DNA of 64,000 bases from Pseudogymnoascus verrucosus (GCA_001662655.1 KV460224.1), one strand, 5' to 3'; positions 4,093 through 43,601 are shown, counted from the first letter of the stretch. The notes: generated from the letters alone by a model not told the origin. Numbers and translations: made by a program.

Positions 4093-4918
4093 CTAGCCAG
4101 TCTTCCCCTTCACAAATGCTGCGGCGGCGCCAGCATCCATAGAGTACTATACCAGTTAGTTCTGACATTGAATATAACAGACGGAGAGATGCTTACAGTC
4201 AGATGCGCTGGCAGGATAATGATACCTCCATCACAGATATTGTCACCGGCGTGGCAGATTACATCCACCTTTGCAGCTGGTATGGACCCAACAGCGTCAC
4301 CATCGTCTGGGTCACCAAAGATCACAGCTAAAACGCCATATGTTAGCAGTGAACGAGAAAATGAGTTCTAGCAATGCAAGACGTACCAGCGGCGACTTTA
4401 GCGGAGTTGTCAGCACTTAGCTGATTTGCTGCATTATGCACAAGCTGTCCACCTTGTCTATTCTGTGTTAGTTATCATATCAAATGCTAATGTTAATAAT
4501 CGGCTTCGGAGACGTACGAGTAGCCGCTCATCACAACCTTCGTATCTGGGCACTGAGTAAAAGCCTGGCCAACCAGCTCCGCCATCTTCTTGCTGCCTGT
4601 AGCATCACCTCCAGCCAAAAACCCAGCAATATCAGCTGGATAATCGACACCCTGGACGGCAAGATTCTCTGTTCCGATGGCCGTGGCAAGAGCAGAAAAG
4701 AATGGTGGCCCAACGAGGGCCCCGACGTTGCCAGATTCCGTGGTACCTCGGGCAAAAATCACGGTCACAGCTTTGCAAGCACTGCCATCTGTGAGATCGT
4801 TCCGTGTGTCTGAGGACTGGCGGATGTTTAAGCCACCTTCAGGGATGGCGATGACGGTGGGGGCGGCGAGTGAGAGGGGGACGCTAAGGAGTGTGAAGAG
4901 GAATGTAGAGGTCCTCAT
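4093..4918 (-). CDS. Cutinase (CE5), secreted, 4 exons
   Basis: Signal peptide MRTSTFLFTLLSVPLSLAAP. Motifs FARGTTESGNVG, GYS|QGG nucleophile elbow split by an intron, FGDP, CHAGDNICDGG and AHLTY. Confidence 0.93.
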
Positions 4919-5576
4919 TTTGGAGGTTTGTGACGGGGGCTTTTCTGGAAGTTGTGAAAAGGTGTATGATGTGCGATTGGGATAGTCGGAAGGAGGAAAT
5001 AACATGGGAGATGCCACATGCTTATATAGAGAAAGATGGGCCCCCCTATCACAATACTCACCATCATCCACTAATCACCACATGACTTGTTAACCTGAGA
5101 ACTAGCATCTGGCGATCTCCCTCCTTCCTCTTTGAAACTGTAGCTTCCTCCATTTGTTGATGCCTGCGTATGTACCTGTCGAAATCACAACAAACTAGAT
5201 ATTTTAGCCATATGGTAAGCCTCTTGATGCGTCCATACTATGGCAATTATACAAATGTCAAAACGGCTCGGAGACAACACCCCCCCTGTTCCAAGTGTCC
5301 CAAACAAGAAACCCTTGCGACGTCTCTTCGATTCCACAGCCACGTGCACAGCCCAATTGGCCTACCCTGTGGGTCAATAAAATAAGACTTTGTGAACAGC
5401 ATGGTTCCCCACGGGGTAATCGAAAATCAACCCGAAGTAAGGCCAGAGAGATAATAGTGGCTCATTCGAATTGTCGGGTTTAATCGCACATATGGAACTA
5501 GAGCTGCCTATTCCATTGCAAAAGTGAGGGGTTGTGGGATTATAGTGCATTAATTGGAGCTGGGGCTGTCGATCTG

Positions 5577-7046: not shown

Positions 7047-9194
7047 TCACATCCTCTGATCTACAAAGCGAATGCTCATGTCGTCAAAAATCGACCATGC
7101 CAGGTGATCTTCGACGTTAGGAGGCACAAAATCGGAGCTCATCACTGGTTGTATGGACGTGTTCTGCAAGCTAGCTTCGAGCTGCGCAGCCAGCTGATGG
7201 CGGAAGTTTACTGGCAGTTGTTGGGTTGCCCGGAGGGTGTGTAAGAGGTCTTGTACAAGGGGAATATCTACCGAAGTGTTAAGTACAGTCAGGACAGGAC
7301 AGTATGGGCCGCTTACCATCCGCTTCGCCAACTCCTCCGGATATAGCTTGGAGTACTATCAAGGCCGCCCATGTAATCATCTGTTTCGTCAGCGAAGCTC
7401 TACCCAAAAATATATACATGGGACTTACCACTAGATCCCAATTGGTCCATATGCTTTTGTCATCGAACTGCATCTTCAGTGCGGCACGTGTTGAAACCAG
7501 CAATTCGTGCCGCTCGGACGAAGTAGTAGATGTCGCGAAGAGATTGAATCCCCGAGCGGGGTGATAGATGGATAACACCAGCAATCTGTGGAGGATATAT
7601 TGGCGGAATACAACTCTACGATCGCTCTCGGACGTGAAGTGCCCTATGGATTTGTCAGAATAGTACGTATGTATTTTAAAATCGCGCACTTACGGCCTGG
7701 TTTGTTGAATCTCGCAAGCCATCTGTCAAGCTGAACAGCCCAGTCCCGAATTATAGCCGCATCCACAGCAGTAAGAGAAGCTGTTAACATTGGCCTTTCC
7801 TGGGGTGACGAGAAACATGACCATATAGTGGGAAGTCCTCGACCAGTAAAATGCGTCAAACCCGTGTGCAACATCTGAGTGAGAGAGTAGATGTCATCTT
7901 CGGATGAAATATGCAGACGAGCTAGGGGCGCTTGAAGTGGAATTATGGGACATGACATATGGAGAGATGCGTGCTCAAGGTCGATGATCTAGTGCTGTCA
8001 GTATGTGACCGTTGACGACTACAATAAAGCTAGAACATACCTGGAGTCCAGCAAAAAGTCTCTGCCACTCTCGGGACCTCTCATCGACTTCTTTCGGGCA
8101 CGACTCCAATATGAGACGGTAGCCAACAGAAATCCATATCCCCGTCGTCTTTATTGAAGCTTCGCAGGCGAGTCCAGCGAGTACTATACCAAGGACATCA
8201 TGGAATGCATTCTCTTCAGACTTAAATGACGGCTTATCTGCGACCAGTTCAGTCGTTGGAGAGGGAATGCTCAACTCGGCAATGGCCCGACACATGACTA
8301 GGAAGTAATCCGGCGCCAGGCCGGCGAGGTCTCGAGTGCCATGGTTCAGAGCCGAGATGTACAACATCGCAGATAGCAGTAGGGGTGTTGGGGAGGAGAA
8401 GTTTTGCTTATTGGGAAGGAAGTGGAGGCTCGGAATATTTATATGAAAGCTACGCGGTTAGATGCGCATCATACCATTGGTGGAACAGAAGGAAGCTCAC
8501 AATTGCCATAACTGCTGAATATTTGCTGGGAGCCATATCTTTTCGTTGACTGGATGATGCGTCTTCTGTCTGAGCTGCGTAGCAGCATTCCACACCTCGC
8601 TGAGCGCTGGATCTCTCGTGTCTATCTGTGGCATATTTTGCTCCTGCTCAACGATCGAACCAGTTGCAGAGTCCAGATCGAGGCGTGACTCGATAATATC
8701 AAGGCGGTTCAATACCGAATGTAGCGTCTGACTTGTCCATCTAACAGCATTGGGCGAGCCTTCTGAGGGCAAAACTTCTCGTGTCGATGAAGCCTTTGTC
8801 ACAATCAGTCTTGGGATGCCGTGCGTACACAGACGGAATGGTCATACGTTTGCTCTTGGTCTAAAGACGCATGGAACGCCAGTCCGCAAGCACCTCCGAC
8901 AGGAAGGCCCTTGGTCAACCTTGCACTTCAGCTGTGGGATAGTTCAGTGACTGTTTCAATATGACATATGACGATATGATACAGCACAACAAGAGACCAA
9001 CGATGAAGTGTAGGTCACGTGAACTGATTGGAATATAAAGTCACCTTCAATCCCCGGCATTTCACTGCACCCCGCATTAGTAAAGCGTACAGGGTCAATA
9101 AGATTATATTGCTCCGAGCCGATCATCAATAGGCAATCGGCCCCGGGGATTCTATGAGCTTACCACAGGCTTTGGTCATCTTAAAGGCCGGCAT
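7047..9194 (-). CDS. Zn(II)2Cys6 transcription factor, multi-exon
   Basis: The spliced N-terminus reads MPAFKMTKACVKCRGLK|LKCKVDQGPSCRRCLRTGVPCVF (C-x2-C-x6-C-x7-C-x2-C-x6-C). The downstream ORFs 8497-8802, 7975-8367, 7644-7958, 7279-7689 and 7047-7331 form the fungal TF body. Confidence 0.88.
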
Positions 9195-9399
9195 TTGCGC
9201 CGCTCCATCGTCCGAACTCATATTGGCGAAAGGGATAGGTATCCTCGCATTACCGGCCGCCTAGCTCCAACACGAAGGCGGAATCCGCAACAATACCGAA
9301 AGTTCTGGGTAAATTGAAGCTTATGTGGAGGTATGTGGAACGCGGAGAAGAATGTGGATGTTTATGGGGGATATGGTCGGGGAACGTGCTTATAATGTG

Positions 9400-9435
9400 T
9401 CGGCGAAGTCGGCGTTATAGTTCCGGCTTTGCCGA
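9400..9435. promoter_or_regulatory. Inverted pair of CGG-N6-CGG motifs (TCGGCGAAGTCGG on +, TCGGCAAAGCCGG on -)
   Basis: Copies at 9400-9412 and 9423-9435, 10 bp apart, in the TF/hexokinase divergent promoter. CGG half-sites are typical of Zn2Cys6 binding sites. Confidence 0.55.
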
Positions 9436-9684
9436 GTGATACCAGACGGATCGACAAGCCGCCTTGAAACCCTTACTCTCAACGCCTTCGGCGTCAAAAT
9501 ATACAATGTGATAGCCAGCTGTCCAGCAATTGCCCCGCTTTCTGTAACCTCATCAAAGCTACCTACCTTGTGGTGCCATGGATTCTCGATTTCGTGATGT
9601 AGGGCTCGTCCCTTCATCTCATATAATAACCCCGCGTTGGATATTCTGCTCTTGGAGTGCCCATGATATCAACAGCTCAGCGTC

Positions 9685-11532
9685 ATGTCAATCCATGACC
9701 ATGCGGATCGCGTCGCGGCGGAGTTCGAGTACGACGGAGAGCATGTCAGGGAGGCAGTGAAGCATTTCATACGTCAGATGCGTCAGTATTTTTGTTGAAC
9801 TACGCGTTTTCTGGTGACCAAACCCACAGAGAGCACGTGGTATCGAACTCTTGGCTAACAATGTATCCAGATGAGGGCCTTCGTGCCGATGGGGGCGCCA
9901 TGGCGCAGATCCCTACTTATGTTACCACGGTACCTGATGGCACCGAAAAGGTATGCCAACCTGTCCGTATCACAAGGTGGTTGCTAATGATAGCAACAGG
10001 GACTATATCTTGCTCTTGATCTTGGAGGAACCAACGTCCGCGTCTGTTCTGTTGACCTACATGGCGATACCAAGCTCACTACTGTGCAATCCAAGACGGC
10101 CATACCGCCCGAGCTGATGCACGCTGCGACATTCCGAGAGCTCCTCCACTTCCTCGCCCAGCAAATCGAGCTCTTCCTGCAAACCTACCACGATGATCTC
10201 CTCCAAGCCCATCGTGCACGCACTACAGAGACATCCCGGGACGCCTTACTTAAGCTCGGCTTTACTTTCAGTTTTGCCTTTAAGCAGCTCGCGCTCAACA
10301 GAGGCACCCTCCTCTACTGGACCAAAGGCTTCAACATCCCAGACGCAATTGGCCAGGAGCTTTGCGGCCTTCTCCAGGACGAGCTTGACGCACTGAATGT
10401 CCCTGTCCTCGTCGCCGCGCTTGTTAATGACACCGTCGGCACTCTGGTAGCCCGCTCGTATCAATCGCCTGGGGCGACGACTACCCTGCTGGGCGCTATT
10501 TTTGGCACGGGCACGAATGGCGCATATGTTGAGAAGCTCGATAATATCACTAAAATGCTCCCCGCTCAAGTCGATGGTAGCGCTGCACCTATTCCGTCAG
10601 GGGATATGATTTTAAACACAGAATGGGGCTCCTTCGACCCTGAGCTCTCTATTCTCCCCAACACCCCTTATGATATAGCTGTCGATCGTGAGTCTGTTCA
10701 TCCTGGGATCCAGATGTTTGAAAAGCGCGTATCTGGACTCTTTCTAGGTGAAACGTTGCGCCACGCCCTACTAGCCATTGCGCCATACAGCGAGACAATG
10801 GTCATCCCGCTCAATTCGCCGATCCATGACCAGTACAGTATCAGCACCACCTTCATCTCCTCGGCAGCCAGCGACGAATCCCCGACACTGGAGATTGTCA
10901 GAAGCGAGCTGAAGAGGATGCTCAACCTAGACGCTACTCCACAAGATGCGGAGGCGGTGAAAAAGCTTGTGCTTGCTATCAACAAACGTGCAGCTAGACT
11001 GGCAGGCGTTGCTATCGCAGCTATTGTGGTCAACTCTGGGCGTCTGACGGATGTATCCACACCGCCCGCTTCGCCACTGAGTGTTGTAGATGGGAAAGTG
11101 CCACTTCCAATCAGCCTCAAAGCTGTGGAGACCGAGAGTGATGAGGCCATTTCAGACGTCCACTCGAAGTCAAAACTACACATATCGCCGTACCGCCGCC
11201 TTCAATCTCTCCTTCGGCGTATCTTCTGCGCTGCTAACCCAAATTTGACAACCCCGGAATCCGACCTTCCCCCATCGAAACCGCAAACTCCGCCAATACG
11301 CCCTGTAGTCCAAAATGAGGGAATCATAGATATCGGCGTTGATGGCTCTATCATCGAATTTTGCCCCGGCTTCATCTCCTCCATTCGCAGCGCCCTCCGC
11401 GACGTAGATGAGATCGGGGTTGAGGGGGATAGAAGGATACGAATTGGGATTGCGAAGGATGGGAGCGGGATTGGAGCTGCGCTTATTGCGAGGATGGCCG
11501 AACTTGAGATGGGGCGTGGGGTGAAAGGATGA
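9685..11532 (+). CDS. Hexokinase/glucokinase family protein, 3 exons
   Basis: MAQIPTYV, YLALDLGGTNVRV, LGFTFSF, WTKGF, VNDTVGT, FGTGTNGAY, NTEWGSFD, FEKRVSG, DGSGIGAAL. There is a long Pro/Ser-rich insertion near the C-terminus. Confidence 0.93.
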
Positions 11533-12209
11533 AATCCCGATTAGTTTTGGTATGTGGATTGTAGTGATGGCAAGGAGAACGAGCTATGGTTGGGTTAGAG
11601 ATTGGCAAGTTAGCATATGAATAGACTGCCTAACGCTATCATTTTATAAAGCGCTTTTATGTAGGCAACTCTGTGACTGGCTGTGATTAAAACTGCACAG
11701 TTCCCCGGTATGGTCTCTTGAAGACGAGAAAATTGTGTGGTACGTCTGTGGTCCTCTGATTATTATTAGAAGTGAGTGGCTACATGTGTCAAATGAGAGA
11801 CGACCGCATAGTATCTAGTTGTAGTTCTGTTTCAGCATATTTTAAAGAGTTACGTATATCTCTACAGTCTATTGATTTAACGAGTATTCATATTTAATTT
11901 AATATAAAATAAAATAAAACAATTACTTTTTGCCCACTGTAAAATTATAATCGGTGCTTATATTTATTACCTGCATAATTAACTAGAAAAACGCCAAATA
12001 AAATGACAACGAGCTTCGTATAAAACCACTTTTAATATAAGATTAAGTCTAAATAGAAATATAGGAAACAAGAGACAATTTTAATACATCCATACCATCC
12101 TAAACGCCAAACCGAACGAGATGCTCTAGCGTAGCTATCTGCCAACTGCTGATATCTATACTTCCTTCAGTCCCCACACATCTTAATCAAACACAAAGCC
12201 CCATAACAT

Positions 12210-13274
12210 CTATTTAGAGATTTGAATCCTACGCATATTGTCCCAGCCATCTAGGAGCTCAACGACACCTAGATGATGATTCCATAAGGCTTCCGCTATC
12301 GCAGTATTGCCCTCATTATTTATATGGTTGCTATCGACGCGCCCTGTCTGGAGTAGTGCCCTCACCACAGATTTATGACCCCCGCTAGCTGCAAAAAGAA
12401 GCGGAGTTGAGCCGGAGTTATCTTTTGAGTCGGGGTCTACGCCCTCTGTAGCAAGGAGGAGCTTGACAACACCCTCATTCCCATTTATACATGCGGTAGT
12501 AAGGGCAGTCTGGCCCTTATTGTTCCGAGAACTAGGATTGACCCCCTTAGTAGCTAGAAGGAGCTCCACCATGTCCGAATTGCCTTTCCAAGCTGCCCAT
12601 GCGAGAGGCGTATTGCCATCGTTATCCCTCATATCGATGTCAACCCTCCCTGTTCCTATGAGGAGGTCTACAACTTCCTTGTGACCGTTGCCGATGGCGA
12701 ACCAAAACGGCGACTGTCCATCAACGTCCCTAGAGTCGGCATCAACCCCCTCAATGCTAAGAAAGAGTTCCACAACACCCACGTGGCCAGCCTCAGCGGC
12801 AAGGGAGAGCGCCGATCGACCATAATTATCGATGGGGTCGGGGTTGATTCCGCTGACCGAAAGCAGTAACGTCACTACGCCCGTATGTCCCATAAATGAG
12901 GATAGCGACAAGGGAGTTTGACAGTAGTCGTCTCTCTCATTCGGATCTGCTATGTCTGCTGCGAGGAGCAGCTCTAGTACCGGCTTGTGACCTGCTTTCG
13001 CCGCTACTGCCAGTGGCCCTCGATCGTCATCTCCTCGGGGGATGTGAACGCCATCACTAGCCGCGATAGCTTTCTTTATGGTCCGAACATTGCCGTTTTC
13101 CGAGGCCCATATTAGTGCAACTGGTTTCTTGCCATGGGCGTCCTGCCGATAATGAATTGGCTCAAAGAATTCTCTACATTTTTGACTGGCGGACAGCAAA
13201 GCAACTCTGTCTCTAGCTAAGACGTATGTAGAAATGATATAGAGGATTTCTTCAGGGAGGTTGAGGAGCTTCAT
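12210..13274 (-). CDS. F-box-like plus ankyrin-repeat protein, intronless
   Basis: N-terminal LLNLPEEILYII resembles an F-box. It is followed by about 8 ankyrin repeats (D..G.TPL..AA..GH..VV.LLL). Confidence 0.85.
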   Translation of the reverse strand: MKLLNLPEEILYIISTYVLARDRVALLSASQKCREFFEPIHYRQDAHGKKPVALIWASENGNVRTIKKAIAASDGVHIPRGDDDRGPLAVAAKAGHKPVLELLLAADIADPNERDDYCQTPLSLSSFMGHTGVVTLLLSVSGINPDPIDNYGRSALSLAAEAGHVGVVELFLSIEGVDADSRDVDGQSPFWFAIGNGHKEVVDLLIGTGRVDIDMRDNDGNTPLAWAAWKGNSDMVELLLATKGVNPSSRNNKGQTALTTACINGNEGVVKLLLATEGVDPDSKDNSGSTPLLFAASGGHKSVVRALLQTGRVDSNHINNEGNTAIAEALWNHHLGVVELLDGWDNMRRIQISK

Positions 13275-13516
13275 TGTCGTTTGGTAATTAAGAGGACATG
13301 CGGCTCTACCTTCCTCGAAACGGGAGTCACCATACGAAACTAAGCGAATTCTCAACAATGTCATCGGGCTGATAATTCGCCCGTCCTACGCCGATAGTAA
13401 AGGTTCTCTATAAGCCAAATTCCAAATGTAGCGGATGAAATACTCCAAATGATTTAAGCACAAAACAAAGTAGATTAAGCTGTCTAGCCGTAGTACGCGC
13501 CCTAAAGAGTCCGGAC

Positions 13517-15676
13517 TCACTCCCTCTTCTCGTCCCGACCCATCACCTCTGCTACGTGGTTCTCCTCCCTCGCCTTCAAAATCTTCGCCGTATATTCCTT
13601 CCCAGCGACGAACCACCACGCCGTCTCCAGCACGAGGAAGCCTCCAACACAGGCACATGTGTAGTTCATATTTTGCGCTACTCCGTATTAGCATTGTAAT
13701 CTATCATTTGAACCAGGACAAAGCTGGGAAGGGGGTTTGCATACCAGAAACAGGCTTCACGTAGGGAAACGAGAAAAACACAATCGCAAATATGAGCCAC
13801 GCGCAGGTTATGATATTGACCGTCATCCCAACGGCATAGCTCATATGGAAGCTGCCACGGTGAATTGTAGTTCGCCGCATCAGCACGTTGGTGAGGATTG
13901 GTATTAGGTAAGCAAGGTTGTTGATGGTGACGGCCGATCCCAGGAGGGCATTGAAAGCTGTGGATGAGCCGAGATACAAACATCCAAGAATCGCGATTAT
14001 GGCCGTGACGGCAAGCTGGGCGTTAAAGGGAATGCGGAGAGTGGGGTGAACTTTAGACCAGCTGGAGAAGTTTGTTAGTGGATGGGGGTGTAAGACAGGG
14101 GTTAGGGAGTCTTACGTGGAAGAGAAGGGGAGTGCGCCGTCGCGGGAGAAGGCCCAGAAGATGCGCCCAGTGCCTATTAGGAAATATTGTCAGCCTGGGA
14201 TGTGGAAGTTGGGACGCCAGACGCATACTTAGTTGAGAACCGACCATACACGGCCCAATGGCGATCCACAGCATGAATGTCAGAGCAAAAGCACCGCCGA
14301 CTGACTGGGTTGCCTGAAGGAACAGTTCCGCGAGCGGAAGGCCGGTGGAAGTCGTAGCTAGCGCCGCGTAATCCTGGACGGAAAACATGAGGGTGATGAG
14401 ATATGTTAAGCCAGTCACGAAGGCGATGGCGAGGGTGATGACTGTAAGTGTCTACTGTTAGGAAACATCTAATATTATACAATAGGAATGCACGTACCAA
14501 TGGCAAGTGGTGCGTTTCGTGAAGGCTACACAAAAGTCAGCTCTGAGTCCAAAAAACACGCAATTGAACAGGGTGGCTCATACATTTGGCATCTCCTCCG
14601 TGATATGAGTAATGCCGTCCAGCCCTCCAAGACTGTACAATGGGTTCACCAACCCCGTAATGAAGCAGATTACATTCGACTCCCATCCGGTCTTGTTTAT
14701 CCACGTCTTGAAGACAAACTCGGTATCCCGGTGAGATGGCGCTGTGGCAGCCACTGTGATCATAATCACGAACCAAGCGAGTTGGAGGTAGAAAACTAAA
14801 CACCGCATTAACACCTCAATAGAACCAGTTTAACCACAGCAAGACTCACGAGAAAATCGGTTGAGCCCGGGGATGGCCTTATTGCCAAACATAACGATCG
14901 ATGCCGTCGCCAAGTTCAAGACCTGATACACGACGAATGTCATCCAGGCCTTGATCACGAGATCTCTATGGTACAATGCAATCAATGCCATGAAATTCTG
15001 AGAATAAATCAGATTTGTCGATGCGGCAGTAAAGATCCCTGATTTGAGTCAACCCGCCATTCACCCCTGAAAATCAATGATCAAACTCACATCCGAAGAC
15101 AGTGCACCAGCCCGTGACGAAGCTGAGGTAACCTGTCATCCTCTTTGGGGCGATGGCGGCGATCCAATGATACATGGCACCCTCGGTTGGGTAGGAGGAG
15201 ACGAATTCGGCGAGCGACGCGCCCAAGAAGGACTGAAGGATCCAGACGAGGATGAAGCCATAGATAACTATCTGGAGTAAGCCCGGGCCACAATAAATAG
15301 ACCTTCCTTTACGACTCACCGGCTCCTGGCCCCCCAGCGGAAATCTCAGTCACCAGCCCGAGTCCAAGACCTAGATACAGGGTTAGCCTGGTTGCGTGGT
15401 ACATAGGCACGTGAGGGTATTTGCACACCTGTCCATGAGATGGTCGTAGTCGAGGCGAGGCCAATGAGACTGAAAATTCCAAAGTGACGCTCCAATTCTT
15501 GTTTGTGGCCTTTGCGGATTGGAGTTAGCTACTCGTGCTCTATTATTTGATTGAGAACATTAATAATTACCCATCTGTGCCAGTCTCAGCTCGTCGGCGT
15601 CGACTGGCTTCTCACTACCACTCATGGTCTCGTCTGCCGCCACAACGGACGCGATAACTTGTTTTTCCTCACTCAT
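13517..15676 (-). CDS. APC-superfamily amino acid/choline/GABA permease (HNM1/UGA4-like), many introns
   Basis: DADELRLAQM..HKQELERHFGIFSLIGLA, ASLAEFVSSYPTEGAMYHWI, GLDGITHITEEMPN, IFWAFSRDGALPFS, YLGSSTAFNALLG, NMNYTCACVGG. Confidence 0.9.
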
Positions 15677-16268
15677 GCTTGCTATGCTGTTAGTTGGCAA
15701 TGAATCCAAGAATTGTGGCTCTGCCAATAGATGTTATAACAAGGCCAAGCGACAAGACGGAGGGATCAGCGACTATTTTGATATCAAGCTTTCCCCGCAC
15801 TGGGTAGTTTCCCAAGATAAGACTCGGTATGCGGTAATGAAACGTAGTAGCGCTTTTCGCGTTTGTGACTCGTGGCGCAAGGGGGAAAGGAGCACGCGCG
15901 CAACATACTGCCGGTTCTCCACCCGAACCGAAAGAATATAGAGATAGGGAGGGATAAAGGAGAGCAGTACTTGAGCACCGTACAATATAGTACTACGAAG
16001 TTTGTATCATATAGATCCTATAGGAAGGAGATACCGGGTGAGACCGCGGCATACCGCGGCATCTGGAGTCCAGTGAGGAGTCGCACAGGGAAGGCGTGGG
16101 GAGGAGCTGCACAAGCTTTGGGGCCGGTTGTCGGCGTTGACCTCGGCATTGATAGCGGTGAACTTAAGGGGAAATACCAAAGGGGATGTTTACCGATGAT
16201 CATTTGCATATCATATCCGTATTAGGAAACTGCGAACCTCAATGTCTCGGTGATATCTCCGAGCCGTA

Positions 16269-16281
16269 TCGGCAAAGTCGG
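16269..16281 (+). promoter_or_regulatory. TCGGCAAAGTCGG (CGG-N6-CGG) in permease/GH2 divergent promoter
   Basis: Matches each of the two copies at 9400 and 9423 at 12 of 13 positions. Confidence 0.55.
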
Positions 16282-16883
16282 TGAAACGGAGGCCGGAGAA
16301 TCAAAGGTCCGTGCTGACAAGGTTTAAGTTTGGAGCTCAAGGGACGCTACCCGACGCTAACGGATGGTTACAGTAAGATCGGCCACGGGCTAAAATTATC
16401 TCCACTATGCATGAACATCACGGAAAATCAACAATAGCAATAGTAATGTCACTGACATCAACAGATCACCAGATCACCAGCTACGGACGGAATATCATTG
16501 TCAACAGCGACGCTATTGTATTGGCAAAGCTGTAAGAAGCTGTTGTATTTTCCCGTCCGAAGTGCGGCGTCATTGTTTCAACTGTGATTATGCTCAATGC
16601 TACTCTGATGGTATGGTAGTGGCATGCTGTAGCACTATACACAGTACAGTAGTTCGGCATGGGGCCCCCAGCTAGGCCTGTCAGGCAAGACACTCAACGG
16701 TCACCCCTCTCTAGAACGGGATGATCATCGTCATAGGTGCCCAGAACGCGAATATAAAGTTGAACGTGTAACCCTGATGGCACAGAGAGGATATCCCCAG
16801 TGAGGTATGTGCATTGTGAAAGCACTGAGCCTAACACAAGGAACCAATTCCTCGACAACGGCTCCCCATTGAATCGAGGCATT

Positions 16884-19694
16884 ATGCGTGTGCTCTCGCT
16901 GTCTCTTGGCGTAGTCGCTGCCATTGTTCAGGTAGTCACTGCTTCACCAGCTCGCCTTGATGATGCGCCACTTGTGACGACTGCCGGTGATGCTGCTGCC
17001 ATTAAGGGCTGGTATATGCAGTCGACGGCAAAGACTTCTAGTGACATGCTTGCTGTTTCGCAGCCTGGCTTTGATATGAGCTCCTGGTACCGTGTTGGTA
17101 GCCGTGGAACTGTCATGGTATGTGTGAACAGCGGCTAGATACTCCCAAGCGTATCAAGAACATTGAATACCGCTGACTCAACACAGGCTGGGCTCCTCGA
17201 GAACAATGTTTACAATGACAAATCCCTGTTTTTCTCCGAGAACTTGAAGACTATGGTTGACCGTTCCCAATTCGACGTACCTTGGCTCTACCGCGAAGAG
17301 CTCACCTTCGACCCGGCTACCAACCAGCGCTACTTCCTCGAGACACACGGCATATCTTCTAAGGCAGACCTCTACCTTAACGGCAAACAGCTTGCCTCCA
17401 AGGAAACTCTCACTGGCGCGTATGGTGGCGAGAAATTCGACATTACCCAGTACCTGGTGAAGGGAAAGAACGCTGTCCTAATACGCGCCTACCCAACCAA
17501 CTACCTCAAGGATTTTGCCCTAGGTTACGTTGATTGGAACCCATATCCACCGGACAATGGGACGGGTGTCTGGCGTGAAGTTTTTGTGTCACAGACTGGG
17601 CCAGTGTCACTATTGAAGCCCCGCGTTGTGACTGACTACAAAGGCAAAGCCGTCAGCAGCGTAACTGCTACTATCAAGGTTGTCGTCAAGAACAGCGAGA
17701 CCAAATCGGTCCAGGGGACGATTAAAGGCTCGATCGAAGACCCTTGCGGTTCCAAGCTTCCTATCTCGGCTTCCTACACTCTCAAAGCCAACGAAATCAA
17801 GACAGTCACACTGACAGCCAAGATCAACAATCCCCAGATCTGGTGGCCGAAAGCATGGGGCGCCCAACCGCTCTATTCGCTCGATCTTGCCGCCTATATC
17901 GGATCCGAGGTCTCCGACCGCGCTGCCCAACGCACGTTCGGCGTCCGCTATGTGACCTCCTCCCTCAACTCCCACCAGGACCGCGCCTTTGCCGTGAACG
18001 GAAACCCATTTCTCGTCACAGGCGCCGGATACTCCGCTGATGTCTTCCTTCGCTTCGATCCAGCTAAGCTTGTACAGCAGTTTGAGTATATCCTCGATAT
18101 GGGCCAGAACACTGTGCGTCTCGAGGGAAAGCAGGAGCACCCTGAGCTGTACGATATCGCCGACCGTATGGGTATAATGGTTCTCGCTGGGTGGGAGTGC
18201 TGCGATAAGTGGGAGGGTTGGAGTTATAACGACGAGGCAAATGGAGTCAAATGGGTTGATGCTGATTATGTCACTGCGGAAAAGCAGATGGAGCATGAGG
18301 CGTATATGATGCAAGGCCACGCCAGCATGCTCGGTTTCCTCGTGGGCAGTGACTTCTGGCCTGATGAGCGTGCATCGCCTATCTATGTCAACAAGCTGAA
18401 CGAGCTTGATTGGGATGTTCCTATCATTGCGTCTGCATCTCTGAGAGGATTTCCAAAGAATTTGGGTTCGTCTGGTATGAAGATGGGTATGTCCTCACAT
18501 CTACTTGCCAACTTTTACCTCCTCCCTTGCTAACAAACCCCCACAGACGGCCCATACGACTGGGTTCCCCCGAATTACTGGTACAACAACCAATATGGCG
18601 CCGCCTTTGGTTTTGGCTCTGAACTTGGCTCGGGAGTTGGCACCCCCGAGCTCTCCTCCCTCAAAAAGTTCCTCACCGCGTCCGACATGAAAGACCTCTG
18701 GACCGCTCCCAACAAGGGTCTCTATCACATGTCCACCATCGACTCCTCCTTCTACAACCGCAAACTCTATAACGACGCCCTCTACGCCCGCTATGGCGCC
18801 CCCACCTCTCTCGATGACTACCTCCTCAAGGCCCAGGCTATGGACTACGAAGGCACGCGCTCCCAATTTGAAGGCTACTCCGCGCTCCAGAGTGCCAGCC
18901 GCCCCGCCACGGGTATCATCTACTGGATGCTCAATAACGCCTGGCCCAGTCTCCACTGGAACCTGTTTGACTACTACCTCAAGCCTGCTGGGTCGTACTT
19001 TGGTGCGAAAGTTGGTGGTAGGGCAGAGCACGTTGCGTTCGGATATGGTAGTGCGAAGGGCGATGTGTGGCTTATTAACCACACGATTGACAAGAAGGGA
19101 TCTAGGACTATTAAAGTTGACTTGTTGAGCAAAGATGGCAAGACCTTGGTTTCTCGCTCGGTGGATGCGACTACGACACCCAACCAATCGAAGAACGTGG
19201 CGACAATCCCAGAAGCAACAACTCTTAAGGACGCTGCCTTCTTGCGCCTTGTACTGAGTGATGCCAAAGGCAAGGTGCTCAGCAGGAACGTGTACTGGAT
19301 CTCGCCCAAGGTGGATAAATTGGACTGGAAACACTCAGACTGGTACTACACCCCCGTCACGGAGTACGCGAGCTACAAGTCACTTGCGACAATCAAGCCA
19401 GCGCAATTGACCGCATCGTCAGGGAAGGGGGTTGTAGTTGATGGGAAGGTGAACGTGGACGTCACGCTAGTGAATAAGGCGGCTGTGGCGGCGTATTTTG
19501 TGCGTCTTGAGCTGAGAGATTCGAAGGGCGAGGATATCCTACCAGTGCTGTGGTCGGACAACTATGTTACGCTTTGGCCAGGTGAGAAGGTGGTGCTGAG
19601 TGTTAGTTGGGCTGCTGGAGGGAGTGGGCAGGGGAAGGTTGATATTTCGGGGATTAATGTCCAGGGTGTTGAGGCGGTGGTGGTGAAGTGGTAG
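16884..19694 (+). CDS. GH2 exo-1,4-beta-D-glucosaminidase (CsxA/Gls93-like), secreted, 3 exons
   Basis: Signal peptide MRVLSLSLGVVAAIVQVVTA. Motifs VDWNPYPPDNGTGVWR, NTVRLEGK, GWECCDKWE, FLVGSD (acid/base region), GMKM|DGPYDWVPP, GFGSELG (nucleophile region), YWMLNNAWPSLHWNLFDYY and WSDNYVTLWPGE. Confidence 0.92.
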
Positions 19695-19797: not shown

Positions 19798-21630
19798 TTA
19801 AACCAGCATCCCTGTCCATACAATCATGCACCCATCCGCAAAATACTGCGTATCAATATCCGTCCCCTATAATCACATGTCAGCAATTCCATCCTCAGTA
19901 GACGCCCCACAGCGGGTGCCAACGAAAACAAGACCCCTCACCTTCGCAAACCTCGCCGCTTGTCCAATCCCCATATTCCTTGCAATCCACATCAAGCACT
20001 CCTGTAAGTACTCCCGCATCTCCTCTCCAACAGTCCCCACCCTCGACGCCACAAAGAGAGGATGCATCAGCAGTAGCCCACCCACTGCTCTCCCTGGTTT
20101 TAATTCCCGGTCTGCGCCTCCGTCGACAAAGGACCTCAGGTCATCAGTCAAGTGGTACGGTATACTCGCCGCGATATCGTCGATCAGTCGTGCCGCCTCA
20201 GTGCGCTCGCGGACGTGGTCTTCTCCGTCATTGAGTGCGTCGGAGAGGGCGAGAATAAGGTCCAGTAGGAGCAGCCTTGCAGCGCGCGAGGTATTCCATA
20301 CACCTGCTATGTAGTGGTCGAAGTAAGTTTCTACCCTCCCTGGCCACGCGCCAGCTTGTGCAGCTGATCCATGACAAAGCGCGGGAATGTGGCCTAGTAG
20401 GTGAGGTTTGAGAATATCAGGTTGCGTAGCTTGCCAGTGCGCGAACTGGTTATAGAGGGACATAGCGTCTGCTTTTAATATGGTGAGGTCTGTGGTAAGG
20501 GGGGCTGGAGAAGAAAGGACGTTGTGGGCCTTGTGGTAGAGAGGGCTGAAGTCGTGGAGGAGAGCTGAGAGGGGGTGTGGGGTGGTGGGTTGGGAGATTA
20601 CCCCAAGGCCTGCCGTTTTGGCTGATGGATGGTTAGAGCTGATGAAGTGCACGGCGCCAAATAAGTCTAGTGGCGAGTTTTCGATTTTTAGGATCGCGGC
20701 TACGCCCCGAGCATGTGTGTTGTGGTTACCAGCGTGGGATTCGCCAGCGACTATAATCTGCATCTTGTTAGCTACTTCATTAAGTTGATGGGATGCGTTA
20801 CAGATAAACCTCATAAAGCCCAAGTAGCATGGCAATCATCAATGCCTCAGGCGTCTCTGTAAAATCCGGGCACTCTATTGCAACCCTCAGCGCCCCAAGC
20901 AGTTCTTGGTATGCTTCCTCAGCGCGAGCTATAAGCCTAGGTCTGCACAGTTTCCGCCCATGATTGGCATTAGCTACGGCCCTACATGCCATTGCAAGGC
21001 TGGAATAATGGCCAGCATGGCTGAGCATAGACTCCAGTCCATCGAGATACCCCCGAGATAGGGTGTGGTTTGTTGAGGCGATGCAGTATTCATACAAGAA
21101 GGCTTGGATAATCCGCTTATCGGCTTCCTCCTGTGAGAATTCTCTGGGGTGAGTATCCTCTGGCAGAACTCCAGTATTGGGACAGGGAATTCGGATCGGT
21201 AAGGTGCACTTCCGGGCACTTGAGAGCTGTGAGGGGCTACCGGTCTGGATCTCTTGGGGCCGGAAAATAAGGCTGGCCCCGTCGCTATAACCCACGCAGG
21301 TGCGGTTCGATGTTAAGCATCTAGCACATGACTAGTTCCAAAATGTCAGTTGGTATTTGGTGGCATAAATAGGAGATGTAGCATTCAGGAAATATATCTT
21401 AGAAGGATTCAATTGGTAAATTCCAAGAACCACCACAAAACCCAAAGTAAAGCTTCTTCTTACGTACAGGACGAGCTTCATCACACTACAAACAGATCAA
21501 CGTTAGTTCTATTCCTCAATATTACAACAAATGGTCTATGGGGGTAATTTAGTATCAACGGGACAAAGCGAACCTTCTTCCTCCGACGCTTGCACGTCTC
21601 ACACCCTCGCGATGGGCCTAAATAGACCAT
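19798..21630 (-). CDS. Zn(II)2Cys6 transcription factor, multi-exon with an 18-nt micro-exon
   Basis: Spliced MVYLGPSRGCETCKRRRKK|CDEARP|SCARCLTSNRTCVGYSD. Body motifs MLLGLYE, HARGVAAIL, SIPYHL, GGLLLMHPL and MGIGQA. Confidence 0.88.
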
Positions 21631-28997: not shown

Positions 28998-29172
28998 AAG
29001 CCACCGCCTGCGGAAGTCTTGGTAATGCATTACAATAATAGGATGGATTGGCACTGGTTTTCCCGGTACCTAATATATAAACCTCATTGTTCCCCCTTCT
29101 TGGGGATTCTCGCAACTTCAGCCCTTTAGTCTTTTCACTATCCTCTGACTCGTCAGCATCGATTAAACGACA

Positions 29173-30526
29173 ATGGTTCGCAACCTCCCCTACGCTGCCC
29201 TGCTCTGCATTGGCCTGGTAGCTGCTCAGACTCCCGGAAAAATTCCAGAGAAGCACCCCAAGCTAGACACATGGGAATGCACCAAGAAACACGGTTGCAA
29301 GAAGCAGGAAAGCTACATTGTTATCGACCAGGCATCTCACCCAAATTATCAATTGCACCAGCCTAGCCTCAACTGTGGCAATTGGGGAAGCGCCCCCAAC
29401 GCGACGGTCTGCCCTGATGAGAAGACATGTGCTAAGAACTGCATCGTTGAAGGTATCCCTGATTATTCCAAAGTTGGTGTCACTACCAAGGGCGGAAATC
29501 TGTACTTGAAGCAACTGGCCAAGGATGGCAGCTCGGTATCCCCAAGAGTCTACCTCCTCGAGAAGAATCAACAGGAGTATGAGATGCTCCAGTTGACGGG
29601 CCGCGAATTCAGCTTCGATGTTGACACGTCCAAGCTTCCTTGCGGTATGAATGGAGCGCTGTACTTATCGGAGATGGATAAGAAGGGAGGCAAGAGCAAG
29701 CTCAACCCCGGCGGAGCTGCCTATGGATCCGGATATTGTGATGCTCAGTGCTTTACTTTCCCCTTCGTTGAAGGCGTTGTGAGTAGCCCAATTCCTCTAT
29801 CTGGTAATTAGAAATCCACTAATTTGAGGCCAGGGCAACATCGAAGGCAAGGGTGCTTGCTGTAACGAGATGGACATCTGGGAGGCTAACTCCAGAGCAA
29901 CCTCGATTGCACCGCATGTTTGCAAGCACAGCGGGTTGTATCGATGCACTGGAGCAGAATGTGAATTTAACGGTGAATGCGACGAGTGGGGATGCGGTTT
30001 CAACCCATATGCTCTTGGCAACAAGAACTACTATGGACCGGGATTGAAGGTCGATACCAGACGCCCATACACTGTTGTGACACAGTTTCCCGCCGTCAAG
30101 GGCAAGATGACAGAGATCCGTCGCCTGTACGTTCAGGATGGAAAGGTTATCCAGAACGCTGTTGTCAACATTGCCGGACCTCCCGCCCAAAACTTCATGA
30201 ATGACAACTACTGCACCAACAAGCCTGGCTCCGAGCGATACATGGAGCTTGGAGGTATGGGCGCCATGGGCGGTGCGTTGTCGCGAGGAATGGTCCTCAT
30301 CTTCAGCATCTGGTGGGACGAGGGCGGATTCATGCAATGGTTGGATGGCGAGTCATCCGGTTCCGGACCTTGCGACGCAACTGAGGGAGACCCCAAGAAC
30401 ATCATCAAGATCCAACCTGACCCAGCTGTGACTTTCAGCAACGTCAAATGGGGCGAGATTGATTCTACATACACCTGCAGCAAGGGTCCGGCAGGGCCAA
30501 AGGGCCCAAGGGGAATCTCCTATTAG
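29173..30526 (+). CDS. GH7 endoglucanase (Cel7B-like), secreted, no CBM1, 2 exons
   Basis: Signal peptide, QTPG..PEKHPKL, SPRVYLL, LPCGMNGALYLSEM, GYCDAQC, catalytic CCNEMDIWEAN, GMVLIFSIW. Confidence 0.93.
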
Positions 30527-40295: not shown

Positions 40296-41230
40296 CTATT
40301 TGGTCTGGGGAAAAGCCATGCCAACCAGAATAGCAGGCTCCTCAACATTATGATGGGCGTAACTCATGATACCAATGGCGCCTGGCTCCATCATCATCGT
40401 GAACTGGAAAGCCATAGGGTAGAGGAGCCATCGCTTTGTGAATGCGCGTAGGATATGACCGTGAGCAACCTATTTATAATAGTCTTAGTAATATGGCATG
40501 GAGTGGTAGTATAATAGACGAGTTCTTACAATCAGGACATCCGCAGGTTGGCCACTTTTTCCATCCATGTGTGGGGTCTGCAACTTGTAAATCTCCCCGA
40601 TGAGCCGATCAAGACGCTTTTGCACTTCTTCGGCGGATCTAGATTGGGCAGAGCATATTAAAAAGTTGTTCTCAGGCACTGACACTTTGCAATCTTTCCT
40701 TTCGAGAGAGGGTGGAATCGACTTACTCCCCACCCTCACAACCCATGGTCCAGATATCCCACTTGGGTAGTCCCCTCTCAGCCCTGCTCTCTTTGATCTC
40801 ATGCGGCTTCAAACCCTCATAAGATCCATAATCCCACTCAGTGATATCCTCTGTAACGGTGACTTTGCCCTCCTTCTCCAAGCGATCTTTATGGATGGGC
40901 CCGAGAAGCATATCTAATGTAACAACAGCACGCTGACGAGGTGAAGTGAAGACGTGCGCTAATTTGGACGGATCGATGAGCTTTCCTGGTCCGACCAATG
41001 CTTCACCTGTGCCTTTGACTTGGGAGATGCCATTTTCCGTCAGAGGGATCTCAGCGTTGCCGGTGCAGCGGCCGTTGATGGTCCATTCGGTCTCGCCTGG
41101 TATTCATAAAGGATTAGAAAAGATTTAAACTGGAAGATTTGAGGGGGTTGAGAGATGTGAGGGTGTGGAGTGGTTATTTACCGTGTCTGGCGAGGAAGAC
41201 TCGTGGTGTGGTTGCGTTTGCGTCAGACAT
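40296..41230 (-). CDS. Histidine phosphatase / phosphoglycerate mutase family (SHB17-like)
   Basis: PRVFLARHG|ETEWTINGRCTG, TSPRQRA, EWDYGSYEG, VAHGHILRAFTKRW. Confidence 0.88.
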
Positions 41231-42007
41231 TTTGTTGGATACCTCAGGCGTTACACAGATGGGGCGTCGAAGCTGAGTCGCGGAACCAATGTGCGAATAA
41301 AGGGCAGTTAAGTAAACTTTGGGTGCTTTTATTGGAGGTCAGAAATCTAGTATCACTGATTACGTTGCGCTGTGAGTTTCCGGTATCTGCCTCAACGGCT
41401 CAGTTTCGTTAATGCGGGCTGACTAGATTTGGGGGGTAATAATTATTCTACCCCCCATATCAAACCCTGGTCACCTTCATTTTGGTTGTGCAGGTTGCCT
41501 CACTGGGCACGCCCTGCATCATGCAGGCTAGATATAAAGGCGAGCCCTCGCGTCGTGCAACAGAATCTAATTGGCACGGAAAATTGCACTGCTACGCCTT
41601 GACCAGGCTACCCGTTGGCCAATCACTCTTCGGACATTTTCATAATGTACAGCAGGATCAACACAAATTTATAGGTCCGCCGGTCATTATGTATTCGTTT
41701 GAGGCTTCTCATAGTAAGCCAGACGTCGCCAATATTTACGCGGTTGGACTACCTACCCTAGGGGTCCAGTTTTTGTGGGGTCGAGCCTTATTCTCAAGTG
41801 ATGAGCGAGCTATCTTAGAGTGGGAGAGTTGACAACCTTATATTCTGTATGCAGCAGTTTCAAACCATCTCAGATGCATTACCAGCAGCTATCGAATCAT
41901 CAAAGACAAACCTCCAAGCCTCGCCATTATCCCATAATCAGTACTAACCCCAAGACTGGGATGACATGAACAAGACCAAATATCTATTTATGCCCCGTCA
42001 ATATAAT

Positions 42008-43601
42008 TTATTCAATGATCACCGTAGTCTCATAGGAATTCAAAGGGGTGCCTCTTTGAGGTTGTTGAATATCAGCCTTTGTGGAGGCTGAGGTTCGAAG
42101 TCCTGACAGGTAAGGTAGCCCATGGTTATTGTCGGCCATTTTCTCATTCCTTGTCAGCTCCGAAATGGAGGCGCTAGAAATTGATGTGGTTCTGTTATCA
42201 ATTGGGCGCTCTTCCAACTCCAGGCCTATAGTTGTAGGCGGCATAACTCGGTGAACGGGCTCTTCTCCTCTCTCCTTCGCCCATTCTTCATAACCACCTG
42301 GGAACTTTTCAATCAAAGTCTTCATAGTCTCTTTGGCCCTGTGGCGCAACCGTCTATTAGCGGTGTAAATCAAGTATAAGTGACGGTACTCACATGTTTC
42401 GGTACCTCAGGTTCCCAGAGAATAAGGCCGAGCTTTTGAGGTCCCATCGGCTTAAGATGTTGTCAATAACTAATCATATAACAGAATCAAAGATCTCACA
42501 GGTAGTAAAGCATGTTGCGATCATCTTGGTCTTCCTCGGGGGCAGAAACTGGAAAATAGTCGAAGTACGCTGCCATATATTGCCTTCCAATAAGGTGACG
42601 AATTGGTCGCCAAGCAGCCATTTCCACTGTGCGTGATCAGCATACACAATCCGGTTGCGGTCTCTCCAGTCCCGTTCCACGATGCCAGACCTACATTCAT
42701 TGTGGGCATATAGAGCTGCTGCATCGTAGATGACCGGCATGTTAGTGTCGATGTTCCATGAGGTATTTCCCGCCCAAAGATCGCCGTGGATAAGACGAGG
42801 CTGTATGTGGCGGCCCCCAGTCTCGAGTGGTCGAAGCAAGCGTGGAATTACCTTGTCAAGGATGCCCTGACAAAGATCTCGCATTTCTTCATCTACGCCT
42901 TGAGATTTCTCTTCGGCGTGCATGAACCACTTCATGGAGTGATAGTATGACTCTTCCCAGGTGTCATGCCAGGTAGTATACTGGGGGATTGTACCCTTAT
43001 AGGTAGGCACATGGAATCCGTACCTGCCCCCAGGGGAGACCCCCTTCTTGTGCAGCTCTGCGAGTTTTGAGGTGAAAGCTTGAATTTCAGGAATCTCATC
43101 CGTCATATTAATTAGCTGGCAGCAAAAAAAGTGAATGCCTGGAGCAGATGCATATGTGCCAGTTCCAATGGGCTCCGGTACAAACTCAGGCATTGTTTGA
43201 TATAAAGCCGTCATCGAGGAAAACTCTCCAGTAACCATACCCTTGCCATTGTCACCTTGAGATACCTGCCATAGTCATTAGCAATACTCCATATCAACTT
43301 GGCAGAGATTACTTTACTTTGAGGAAGTAGGAACGGGGGGTGCCATCAGCCATTTGAGTTGAAATTTCAGCAGTTCTAGTCCAATAACTTGCTCCATGAG
43401 GACGAATGCTCTCGACCACGGTGCCTGGAGGCAATACTGACTTTGTTAAGGGTGGCCAGTATGATTTGTTGAACATACCAAACTATACTTACTTGCTTTG
43501 ACGTTATCATCAACAAAATGAATCCATTTTTCATCGACATCGATTGGCTTGCCCCATTCCGCGGGGGTCATCACATGCAAAACCTCCAAGGGAGTAGCCA
43601 T
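42008..43601 (-). CDS. Fructosamine-3-kinase / ribulosamine kinase family protein, multi-exon
   Basis: HGASYWTRTAEI, YFLK, GEFSSM, YGFHVPT, RLLRPLE, LIHGDLWAGN, IYDAAALYAHNE. Confidence 0.88.

Follow-up and report, generated by a model that had tools for sequence, protein, structure and literature searches.

The window, a 64-kb stretch of the genome of Pseudogymnoascus verrucosus, a fungus of soils and caves, contains two divergent gene pairs, one consisting of a Zn2Cys6 transcription factor (TF) and a hexokinase, and the other of an APC permease and a CsxA-type GH2 enzyme. Both head-to-head pairs, which a first-pass annotation of this DNA had proposed, proved to be real, as judged by start codons and strands: 463 bp lie between the ATG of the TF gene (9221, minus strand) and that of the hexokinase gene (9685, plus strand), and 1207 bp between the ATG of the permease gene (15676, minus strand) and that of the GH2 gene (16884, plus strand). 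Annotated P. verrucosus proteins matched the window letter for letter. An ankyrin-repeat gene, absent from the first-pass annotation, lies between the pairs. The genes and promoter motifs are as follows.

7047..9221, minus strand: Zn2Cys6 TF gene; 9 exons, 552 aa (modelled by splicing at GT..AG introns)
9400..9412, plus strand: motif copy 1, TCGGCGAAGTCGG (CGG-N6-CGG), in the TF/hexokinase promoter
9423..9435, minus strand: motif copy 2, TCGGCAAAGCCGG, in the TF/hexokinase promoter, inverted relative to copy 1 and 10 bp from it
9685..11532, plus strand: hexokinase-family gene; 3 exons (9685-9780, 9873-9950, 10000-11532), 569 aa
12210..13385, minus strand: ankyrin-repeat gene (Pfam ankyrin families), in the spacer between both pairs
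13517..15676, minus strand: APC permease gene of the Hnm1-like group; 11 exons, 530 aa; exact match to P0470 (VE01_04883)
16269..16281, plus strand: motif copy 3, TCGGCAAAGTCGG, in the permease/GH2 promoter
16884..19694, plus strand: GH2 exo-beta-D-glucosaminidase gene, CsxA type; 3 exons (16884-17117, 17187-18485, 18546-19694), 893 aa

All five genes were represented in spliced RNA contigs (X16) from a relative. These contigs lacked seven of the eight TF introns (the eighth, 9044-8932, comes from sequence reading only), three permease introns, and both introns of the GH2 gene, to which P0453 (VE01_04884) maps exactly.

The GH2 protein is, judged by its sequence, a true exo-glucosaminidase of the CsxA type, in agreement with the identity first assigned to it. 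In comparisons run with P0121 (95% identity to the window GH2 exon), alignment to CsxA of Amycolatopsis orientalis (PDB 2VZS and related entries) was end to end and scored 671 bits over residues 7-885, as against 83 bits for beta-mannosidases. RLEG and GSDF stretches, also present in the window's own open reading frame, aligned with CsxA residues 392-395 and 467-470. The fungal enzyme thus keeps equivalents of Glu394, Ser468-Asp469, and Glu541, the last of which we take to be the nucleophile; at this position GSELG aligned with NSETS, and the glutamate was invariant in 15 fungal sequences. In CsxA, Glu394 pairs with the C2 amine of the substrate, and Asp469, which follows Ser468, is the acid/base residue (PMC6566704). 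Pfam matched GH2 domains and also the C-terminal Ig_GlcNase domain (PF18368), the latter with an E-value of 1.7e-35 and a score of 121.8 bits (cut-off, 26.3). Compared to CsxA, the P. verrucosus enzyme is fungal, intron-bearing, known here from sequence alone, and shorter by ~130 C-terminal residues (893 versus 1032 aa). Its secretion is predicted from a hydrophobic N-terminus judged by eye alone.

The product of the hexokinase gene was 100% identical to P0001 and exceeded the Pfam cut-offs for Hexokinase_1 and Hexokinase_2 (225 and 214 bits). It retains all of the motifs that presumably bind ATP and glucose (DLGGTN, FTFSF, WTKGF, NDTVGT, GTGTN, NTEWG, Q..FEK, DGS, and GSGIGAA) and looks catalytically intact. 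In a quick tree search with 39 sequences hand-picked from the 120 listed, the cluster copies fell into a clade of 16 (clade A, support 100) apart from a clade of 23 (clade B, support 100) to which the canonical glucokinases belong, among them a protein of Pseudogymnoascus sp. VKM F-4519. That strain also carries a cluster copy, V501_05049, and the cluster kinase is therefore an extra, divergent glucokinase copy. Its place in clade A sets it apart from the canonical fungal glucokinases, the orthologues of GlkA/Glk1. Clade A kinases, which among the matches listed came from Cudoniella, Halenospora, Xylogone, and Scytalidium, are distinguished by V153F, I158L, N293H (beside the sugar-binding Q..FEK stretch), L557R, and V558M changes and by an insert of 60-95 aa (~90 aa in P. 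verrucosus) that contains a basic-hydrophobic stretch recurrent within the clade; the insert was retained in the X16 RNA contig. Glucosamine is expected to be a substrate of any hexokinase, and a dedicated kinase would therefore be unnecessary.

No complete Zn2Cys6 pattern occurred in a single reading frame of the window. The N-terminal zinc cluster of the TF is split by two introns, and C-x2-C-x6-C-x7-C-x2-C-x6-C is intact once these are spliced out. Homologues P0363, P0366, P0372, P0380, and P0386 aligned with the protein over almost its whole length at 42-50% identity. Zn_clus scored above its cut-off in two of nine full-length homologues and slightly below in two more; the Fungal_trans middle homology region gave no Pfam match at E <=0.01 in five TF exon pieces or in the nine homologues. 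Outside the zinc cluster, the TF belongs to a small unmodelled family with 68 representatives (E <=0.001) among 1.84 billion.

The head-to-head position of the kinase and TF genes raises the question of whether the kinase paralogue might mainly sense sugar on behalf of the TF, as Gal1/Gal3 do with Gal4 in yeast. Such a role would suit a gene kept in addition to a canonical glucokinase, and the recurring basic-hydrophobic stretch of the insert, kept in mature RNA, could form a docking surface. We nevertheless regard a sensor as very unlikely, as the catalytic and substrate-binding motifs are all intact, and as the TF homologues (from Phyllosticta, Hyaloscypha, Penicillium, Tremellales, and others) and the clade A kinases had only Pseudogymnoascus in common among the matches listed.

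The two promoters had been said to share a 13-bp motif. No exact 13-mer was common to both, and their longest exact common word, at 10 nt, was the same as in shuffled sequences. What stood was a degenerate 13-mer, TCGGCRAAGYCGG (CGG-N6-CGG), with three copies in the 64 kb, two in the TF/hexokinase promoter and one in the permease/GH2 promoter. The copies differ from one another by 1-2 nt, and no others were found in the 64 kb even when one mismatch was allowed (expected number, 0.19). In a pattern-free test, which sought any 13-mer of the permease/GH2 promoter with at least two separate copies (<=1 mismatch) in the TF/hexokinase promoter, we observed one, a result given by 0 of 1000 dinucleotide shuffles. 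The X16 RNA contigs, whose ends are bounds only, extend to at least ~9233 (TF), 9486 (hexokinase), 16218 (permease), and 16450 (GH2), and the motifs thus lie within transcript-free stretches of at most ~250 bp. CGG-N6-CGG is the form of the Hap1 binding site, and direct CGG repeats would suit a Zn2Cys6 dimer. We also considered a common repeat element as the source of the motif and rejected it because the flanks of the copies could not be aligned.

The permease was proposed in the first-pass annotation as a possible glucosamine transporter, a role that our results leave unsupported. P0242, which is 97% identical to the window permease, matched AA_permease_2 with 183 bits over residues 45-491 of its full length. 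Its tree has short branches in roughly taxonomic order, which marks it as an ordinary, slowly evolving orthologue in a widespread Hnm1-like group and gives no sign of a new substrate at the sequence level. A role as glucosamine carrier is speculative and improbable. One alternative is a co-regulated nitrogen-scavenging unit in which the permease imports choline, ethanolamine, GABA, or similar small amines and glucosamine enters by hexose carriers. Names in the sources for permease relatives (choline and amino-acid transporters, all assigned automatically) agree with this alternative, as does the unchanged function that the shape of the tree suggests. When Pochonia chlamydosporia grows on chitosan, moreover, the carriers induced are of the MFS and OPT families, and a 'choline and nitrogen mustard permease' is down by log2 2.8 (PMC8518118); in mammals, glucosamine is carried by the glucose transporter GLUT2 (PMC4911601). 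The Pochonia permease need not be an orthologue, however, we found no demonstrated substrate for any member of the orthologue group, and the P. verrucosus permease has its promoter and motif in common with the GH2 gene. On balance, we consider the nitrogen-scavenging alternative unlikely.

Conserved linkage of these genes held within Pseudogymnoascus and failed outside it. The order hexokinase, zero or one gene, permease, GH2 occurred in P. verrucosus and in 10 further Pseudogymnoascus genomes, six of them with all three locus tags and four with two of the three, adjacent or with free tags between. In organism J, the four genes lie on one 37.8-kb contig, with 7.6 kb between the pairs compared to 2 kb here, and the TF/hexokinase intergenic region aligned over its whole length at >=80% in organisms J and K, with no alignment past the stop codons. 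In organism J the ankyrin-repeat gene sits on a separate contig, and it was not placed in organism K. In VKM F-4513 and F-4515 the locus tags run from hexokinase to permease with no room for a gene, and in F-4519 a single tag separates hexokinase from GH2. This gene thus varies between relatives and is probably no member of the unit.

Beyond the genus, none of 44 metagenome GH2 loci, some of them near-duplicates of one another, had a permease, hexokinase, or TF match in its flanks; 19 of the loci extend at least 5 kb upstream. Among 103 flank ORFs from 19 loci, none matched a permease, hexokinase, MFS, or Zn_clus domain. Two other Leotiomycetes, Xylogone and Scytalidium, each encode a kinase of clade A as well as a GH2 enzyme of 68-69% identity, but on separate contigs. 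In a survey of nine Penicillium species, the GH2 gene and the listed permease relative were unlinked in eight (on other contigs or scaffolds, or with distant locus tags), as were the TF and GH2 relatives in two, among the matches listed. The grouping was thus seen only in Pseudogymnoascus, and at 11-14% DNA divergence within one genus, descent alone is expected to suffice to preserve gene order. The four genes could then be unrelated neighbours, each with its own pathway (trimming of wall or necromass chitosan, sugar phosphorylation, choline- or amine-type uptake), and the motif could be bound by another factor or have no function. Beyond the missing linkage, the differing taxonomic spread of the four families, the variable spacer, and a conservative permease whose relatives elsewhere are not beside GH2 all fit descent without shared function. 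Against it, one 13-mer occurs in these two promoters and nowhere else in 64 kb, its form is the one that a Zn2Cys6 protein would be expected to bind, such a protein is encoded by one of the four genes, and the pairs are still adjacent in organism J despite a replaced spacer. Descent without shared function seems to us somewhat unlikely, though it is the strongest of the competing explanations.

The locus can be compared with three known systems. The first is the GlcNAc cluster, which in Trichoderma reesei consists of HXK3, DAC1, DAM1, NGT1, and the regulator RON1 (PMC12176254). Like the route proposed here, it is an amino-sugar pathway in which the genes for a regulator, a carrier, and a kinase of the hexokinase family adjoin. 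The P. verrucosus locus, however, has a Zn2Cys6 protein rather than the Ndt80-like RON1, its kinase is a glucokinase paralogue rather than HXK3, an APC permease takes the place of the MFS carrier NGT1, and it adds the GH2 enzyme with its predicted secretion. Domains of DAC1, DAM1, an Ndt80-like regulator, or the MFS carrier NGT1 were found in none of 76 ORF pieces of the window. With a different family at every step, the locus is distinct from the GlcNAc cluster, as originally claimed; the GlcNAc cluster is also conserved across fungi, whereas this neighbourhood is not. The reported absence of a glucosamine-6-phosphate deaminase gene from the window held as well, in that no such domain occurred in the ORF pieces scanned (15, and a further 61 of >=110 aa), a search that short exons may escape. 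In a second system, the CsnR operon of Streptomyces, an ABC uptake system and a ROK kinase are encoded. The CsnR chitosanase regulon is similar in that one regulator with a repeated operator governs chitosan-breakdown genes, with glucosamine and its oligomers as signals; CsnR is, however, a bacterial ROK-family repressor with a palindromic operator (PMC3048496), and its system has no homology with the P. verrucosus parts. Third, in P. chlamydosporia on chitosan, a 'Glucokinase' (RZR61856.1, up log2 6.5) responds jointly with GH2 enzymes, a precedent for the joint response proposed here and a likeness to our kinase in name; its partners there are GH75 chitosanases and MFS/OPT carriers, and that study is not known to describe a physical cluster of the four families (PMC8518118).

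The side-by-side genes and the common promoter motif suggest that this locus may be a chitosan/glucosamine salvage unit. One Zn2Cys6 regulator, most simply the local TF, would drive both pairs through CGG-N6-CGG in both bidirectional promoters. The extracellular GH2 enzyme would remove one glucosamine at a time from chitosan or chito-oligomers, working at their non-reducing ends, the sugar would enter through the adjacent permease or general hexose carriers, the spare glucokinase copy would trap it as glucosamine-6-phosphate, and a deaminase encoded elsewhere would feed glycolysis and free ammonium. Co-regulation, the inducer, the substrate preference of the kinase, and the permease cargo are what we infer here. 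The GH2 identity, the spare kinase, the motif, the genus-wide order, and transcription in a relative speak for the release, import, and phosphorylation module first proposed; linkage beyond the genus and the permease substrate do not. A co-regulated glucosamine/chitosan unit is thus plausible, and we advance it tentatively. In a more far-reaching version, to which we give little weight, the permease, perhaps with its whole orthologue group in filamentous ascomycetes, would be a carrier of protonated glucosamine and the clade A paralogue a dedicated glucosamine kinase, and with the local TF they would make up a regulon for free glucosamine or chitosan, the first to be described in a fungus. If true, Pseudogymnoascus would have a glucosamine/chitosan regulon separate from the GlcNAc cluster.

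The window was fungal, with many introns, and the transcription factor, hexokinase, permease, and GH2 genes were recovered in it with the identities and head-to-head pairing that the first-pass annotation had described. These four named genes stood, but the stretch holds a fifth, an ankyrin-repeat gene.

Genes of the locus
7047-9221, minus strand: Zn2Cys6 factor
9685-11532, plus strand: hexokinase-family gene
12210-13385, minus strand: ankyrin-repeat gene, which sits between the two head-to-head pairs
13517-15676, minus strand: APC permease
16884-19694, plus strand: GH2 gene

The long hexokinase exon was 100% identical to P0001, a 569-residue database protein named 'glucokinase [Pseudogymnoascus verrucosus]', and the annotated P. 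verrucosus proteins VE01_04883 (permease) and VE01_04884 (GH2) matched the window letter for letter. Comparisons beyond these 64 kb drew on databases of proteins, contigs from metagenomes, and public runs. Genes for a cutinase (4496-5074, minus strand) and a GH7 cellobiohydrolase (29167-30523, plus strand) flank the locus, and two long ORFs immediately downstream of the GH2 gene (19876-21331, minus strand) had no Pfam match. About 23 kb from the locus, a histidine-phosphatase ORF lies near a fructosamine-kinase-family ORF (40726-43274, minus strand); an ORF of 1435 aa (45124-49428, plus strand) has the layout of a fungal NLR-like protein, with an NTPase of the NPHP3_N type plus a winged helix and WD40 repeats.

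The reading that we tentatively place first is a lineage-specific, co-regulated unit that would salvage glucosamine from chitosan. Its GH2 step is well grounded, its kinase step plausible, and its permease step open.

First, the GH2 protein aligned over its whole length with CsxA of Amycolatopsis (671 bits; beta-mannosidases, 83 bits). The alignment retained equivalents of CsxA Glu394, Ser468-Asp469, and the nucleophile Glu541, and an exo-glucosaminidase Ig domain was found. This full-length alignment, together with the retained residues and domain, makes the predicted CsxA-type glucosaminidase a sound assignment. Glu394 holds the C2 amine through charge, and Ser468-Asp469 is assigned to acid/base function (PMC6566704).

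Second, a tree of 39 kinases, hand-picked from 120 listed hits, split into two groups with support of 100 on either side. One group (23 rows) contained the canonical glucokinases, arranged broadly by taxonomy; Pseudogymnoascus sp. VKM F-4519 contributed one of them. The other, clade A (16 rows), contained cluster copies from six Pseudogymnoascus genomes together with proteins from Cudoniella, Halenospora, Xylogone, Scytalidium, and unnamed contigs. Because VKM F-4519 has both the canonical copy and a cluster copy (V501_05049), the window kinase is, on phylogenetic grounds, an extra, older glucokinase paralogue. It retains all ATP- and sugar-binding motifs. Clade A kinases carry an insert of 60-95 aa, retained in an RNA contig of a relative, plus a few clade-specific changes, one of which (N293H) adjoins the sugar-binding Q..FEK stretch; no feature of the kinase sequence indicated a preference for glucosamine. 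The insert (window 11150-11440) precedes the DIGVDGS motif, and within it a basic-hydrophobic stretch, missing from canonical glucokinases, recurs in clade members from Pseudogymnoascus to Scytalidium.

Third, the permease carries the AA_permease_2 domain in full. A tree of 38 rows placed it near those of other Leotiomycetes on short branches, and its group spans Eurotiales, Dothideomycetes, Sordariomycetes, and some basidiomycetes. Automatically assigned database names call its relatives choline or amino-acid transporters. The P. destructans model VC83_01807 (P0465) ends at residue 372, precisely at an exon end of the 530-residue protein of its congeners. Across the intron region 14061-14114, one RNA contig of a relative reads through with small indels, which may mean that some relative retains the intron or has lost a splice site. 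Four Fusarium gene models (P0277, P0288, P0313, and P0353) are fusions containing a relative of the window permease; the partners are ankyrin repeats in F. avenaceum and a GH35 beta-galactosidase-like enzyme in F. oxysporum, and in other Fusarium fusions the extra region had no Pfam match (P0313 by scanning, P0353 by its listed domains only). These fused models imply that other glycosidase or ankyrin genes directly adjoin the permease relative there.

To our knowledge, uptake and phosphorylation of free glucosamine are poorly defined in fungi. Our search, which covered part of the literature, returned no paper on a fungal glucosamine-specific carrier, on a glucosamine or chitosan gene cluster, or on the window cluster, and queries with the locus tags or with Pseudogymnoascus plus chitosan or glucosamine found nothing relevant. 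Among the entries of Table 1 of one study, Pochonia chlamydosporia with chitosan induced a 'Glucokinase' (log2 6.5), three GH75 genes, and a GH2 gene (2.4), as well as MFS (4.6) and OPT-like (4.9) transporters, and repressed a permease annotated for choline and nitrogen mustard (-2.8; PMC8518118). This table supports a joint response of kinase and GH2 genes to chitosan; the repressed choline-type permease and the induced MFS and OPT carriers speak mildly against a permease of the choline type being the carrier normally used. That the window permease carries glucosamine is the boldest reading of the locus and, in our judgment, an improbable one. In Aspergillus fumigatus, production of an exo-glucosaminidase is reported to depend on chitosan (PMC4703589).

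The zinc-cluster pattern of the transcription factor was complete in no single frame of the window; two introns interrupt it, and the spliced model of 552 aa has the six cysteines in place. Outside the zinc cluster, no Pfam model matched. The factor is 42-50% identical over almost its full length to proteins of Phyllosticta, Hyaloscypha, a Phaeosphaeriaceae species, Periconia, and Penicillium and about 32-37% identical to Tremellales proteins, in a small family (68 representatives at E <= 0.001 among 1.84 billion).

The two promoters, namely the factor-kinase intergenic region (promoter A) and the permease-GH2 intergenic region (promoter B), had been said to share a 13-bp motif. No exact 13-mer was common to both, and the longest common word was 10 nt, the same as in shuffles, but a degenerate version, TCGGCRAAGYCGG, was present in both.

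Copies of the degenerate motif
9400-9412 and 9423-9435: copies 1 and 2, an inverted pair 10 bp apart, promoter A
16269-16281: copy 3, promoter B

Allowing one mismatch brought in no further copy in 64 kb; the three found compare with 0.19 expected, an expectation for a pattern derived from the sites themselves, so we applied a separate test without a preset pattern. One 13-mer of promoter B matched promoter A (<=1 mismatch) at two or more separate sites, a result seen in 0 of 1000 dinucleotide shuffles. Significance was confined to this three-copy test among the motif tests made; a plain count of 13-mers matching between promoters with <=1 mismatch gave 5, inside the shuffle range of 0-8. The motif consists of two direct CGG triplets with six bases between them, a known type of Zn2Cys6 site (Hap1). 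A repeat element as the source of the copies was ruled out because their flanks are unrelated. A looser pattern, CGGCNAAGNCGG, gave 5 matches with one mismatch versus 3.3 expected and added no support. In organism K, a coded relative, alignment upstream of the permease stops at 16236, just before copy 3, an end point that is neutral as to whether that copy is conserved.

Contigs of X16, a public run from a relative about 8-12% diverged from the window, covered all five genes. They are RNA-derived, because introns in the factor, permease, and GH2 genes are missing exactly at GT..AG borders. These contigs extend at least to about 9233 (factor), 9486 (kinase), 16218 (permease), and 16450 (GH2), positions that are bounds rather than mapped transcript starts, and leave stretches of at most about 250 bp in each promoter uncovered, within which the motif copies fall. 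The permease and GH2 5' leaders (15677-16218 and 16450-16883) appear long in these contigs of a relative, with minimum lengths of about 540 nt for the permease and 390-430 nt for GH2. The X16 contig for the ankyrin gene (12210-13385, minus strand) lacks three single bases that the window has (12547, 12979, and 13060); that copy could thus be a paralogue or frame-shifted.

Conserved linkage was found within Pseudogymnoascus and not in the loci and species compared outside it. A chance neighbourhood is a serious rival, which we judge somewhat less likely than the salvage unit. Within the genus, locus tags gave the order hexokinase, zero or one gene, permease, GH2. All three tags were found in six further genomes (WSF 3629, 03VT05, 05NY08, 24MN13, VKM F-3557, and F-4513), and two of the three in four more (VKM F-103, F-4519, F-4515, and 23342-1-I1), either adjacent or with free tags between them for the missing gene or genes. 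In P. destructans, the permease adjoins GH2 and the kinase is on the same 1.85 Mb contig. Organism J, another coded relative, has factor, kinase, permease, and GH2 in order on one 37.8 kb contig, with 7.6 kb between the pairs versus 2 kb in the window and the ankyrin gene on a different contig; in organism K the two pairs sit on separate contigs, and the ankyrin gene was not placed.

Outside the genus, tblastn (E <= 1e-5) with pieces of the factor, kinase, and permease matched none of 44 metagenome loci carrying a 30-75% identical GH2, 19 of which have at least 5 kb upstream and some of which look duplicated (L009/L010, L020/L021, and some others). Among flank ORFs of 19 loci, 103 of the 183 that reach 185 aa or more were scanned, namely those lying no farther than about 5 kb from GH2; Pfam detected in them neither a permease or hexokinase domain nor an MFS or Zn_clus domain, and the neighbours were mixed, for example acyl-CoA dehydrogenase and GH76. 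In Xylogone and Scytalidium, which each possess a clade A kinase as well as a GH2 of 68-69% identity, the two genes sit on separate contigs. Among listed cluster members, GH2 and the permease relative lay on separate contigs or scaffolds or had far-apart locus tags in eight Penicillium species, a genus with two related permease clusters, and the factor and GH2 were likewise unlinked in two. For Phyllosticta, where several assemblies are intermixed, accession numbers and contig sizes of the factor and permease relatives do not point to adjacency.

If the salvage model is wrong, the locus would be ordinary genus-level synteny. It sets out a separate clade of glucokinase paralogues in Leotiomycetes, and it supplies four specific candidates, along with a possible operator, that are open to simple genetics in a culturable and non-pathogenic species.
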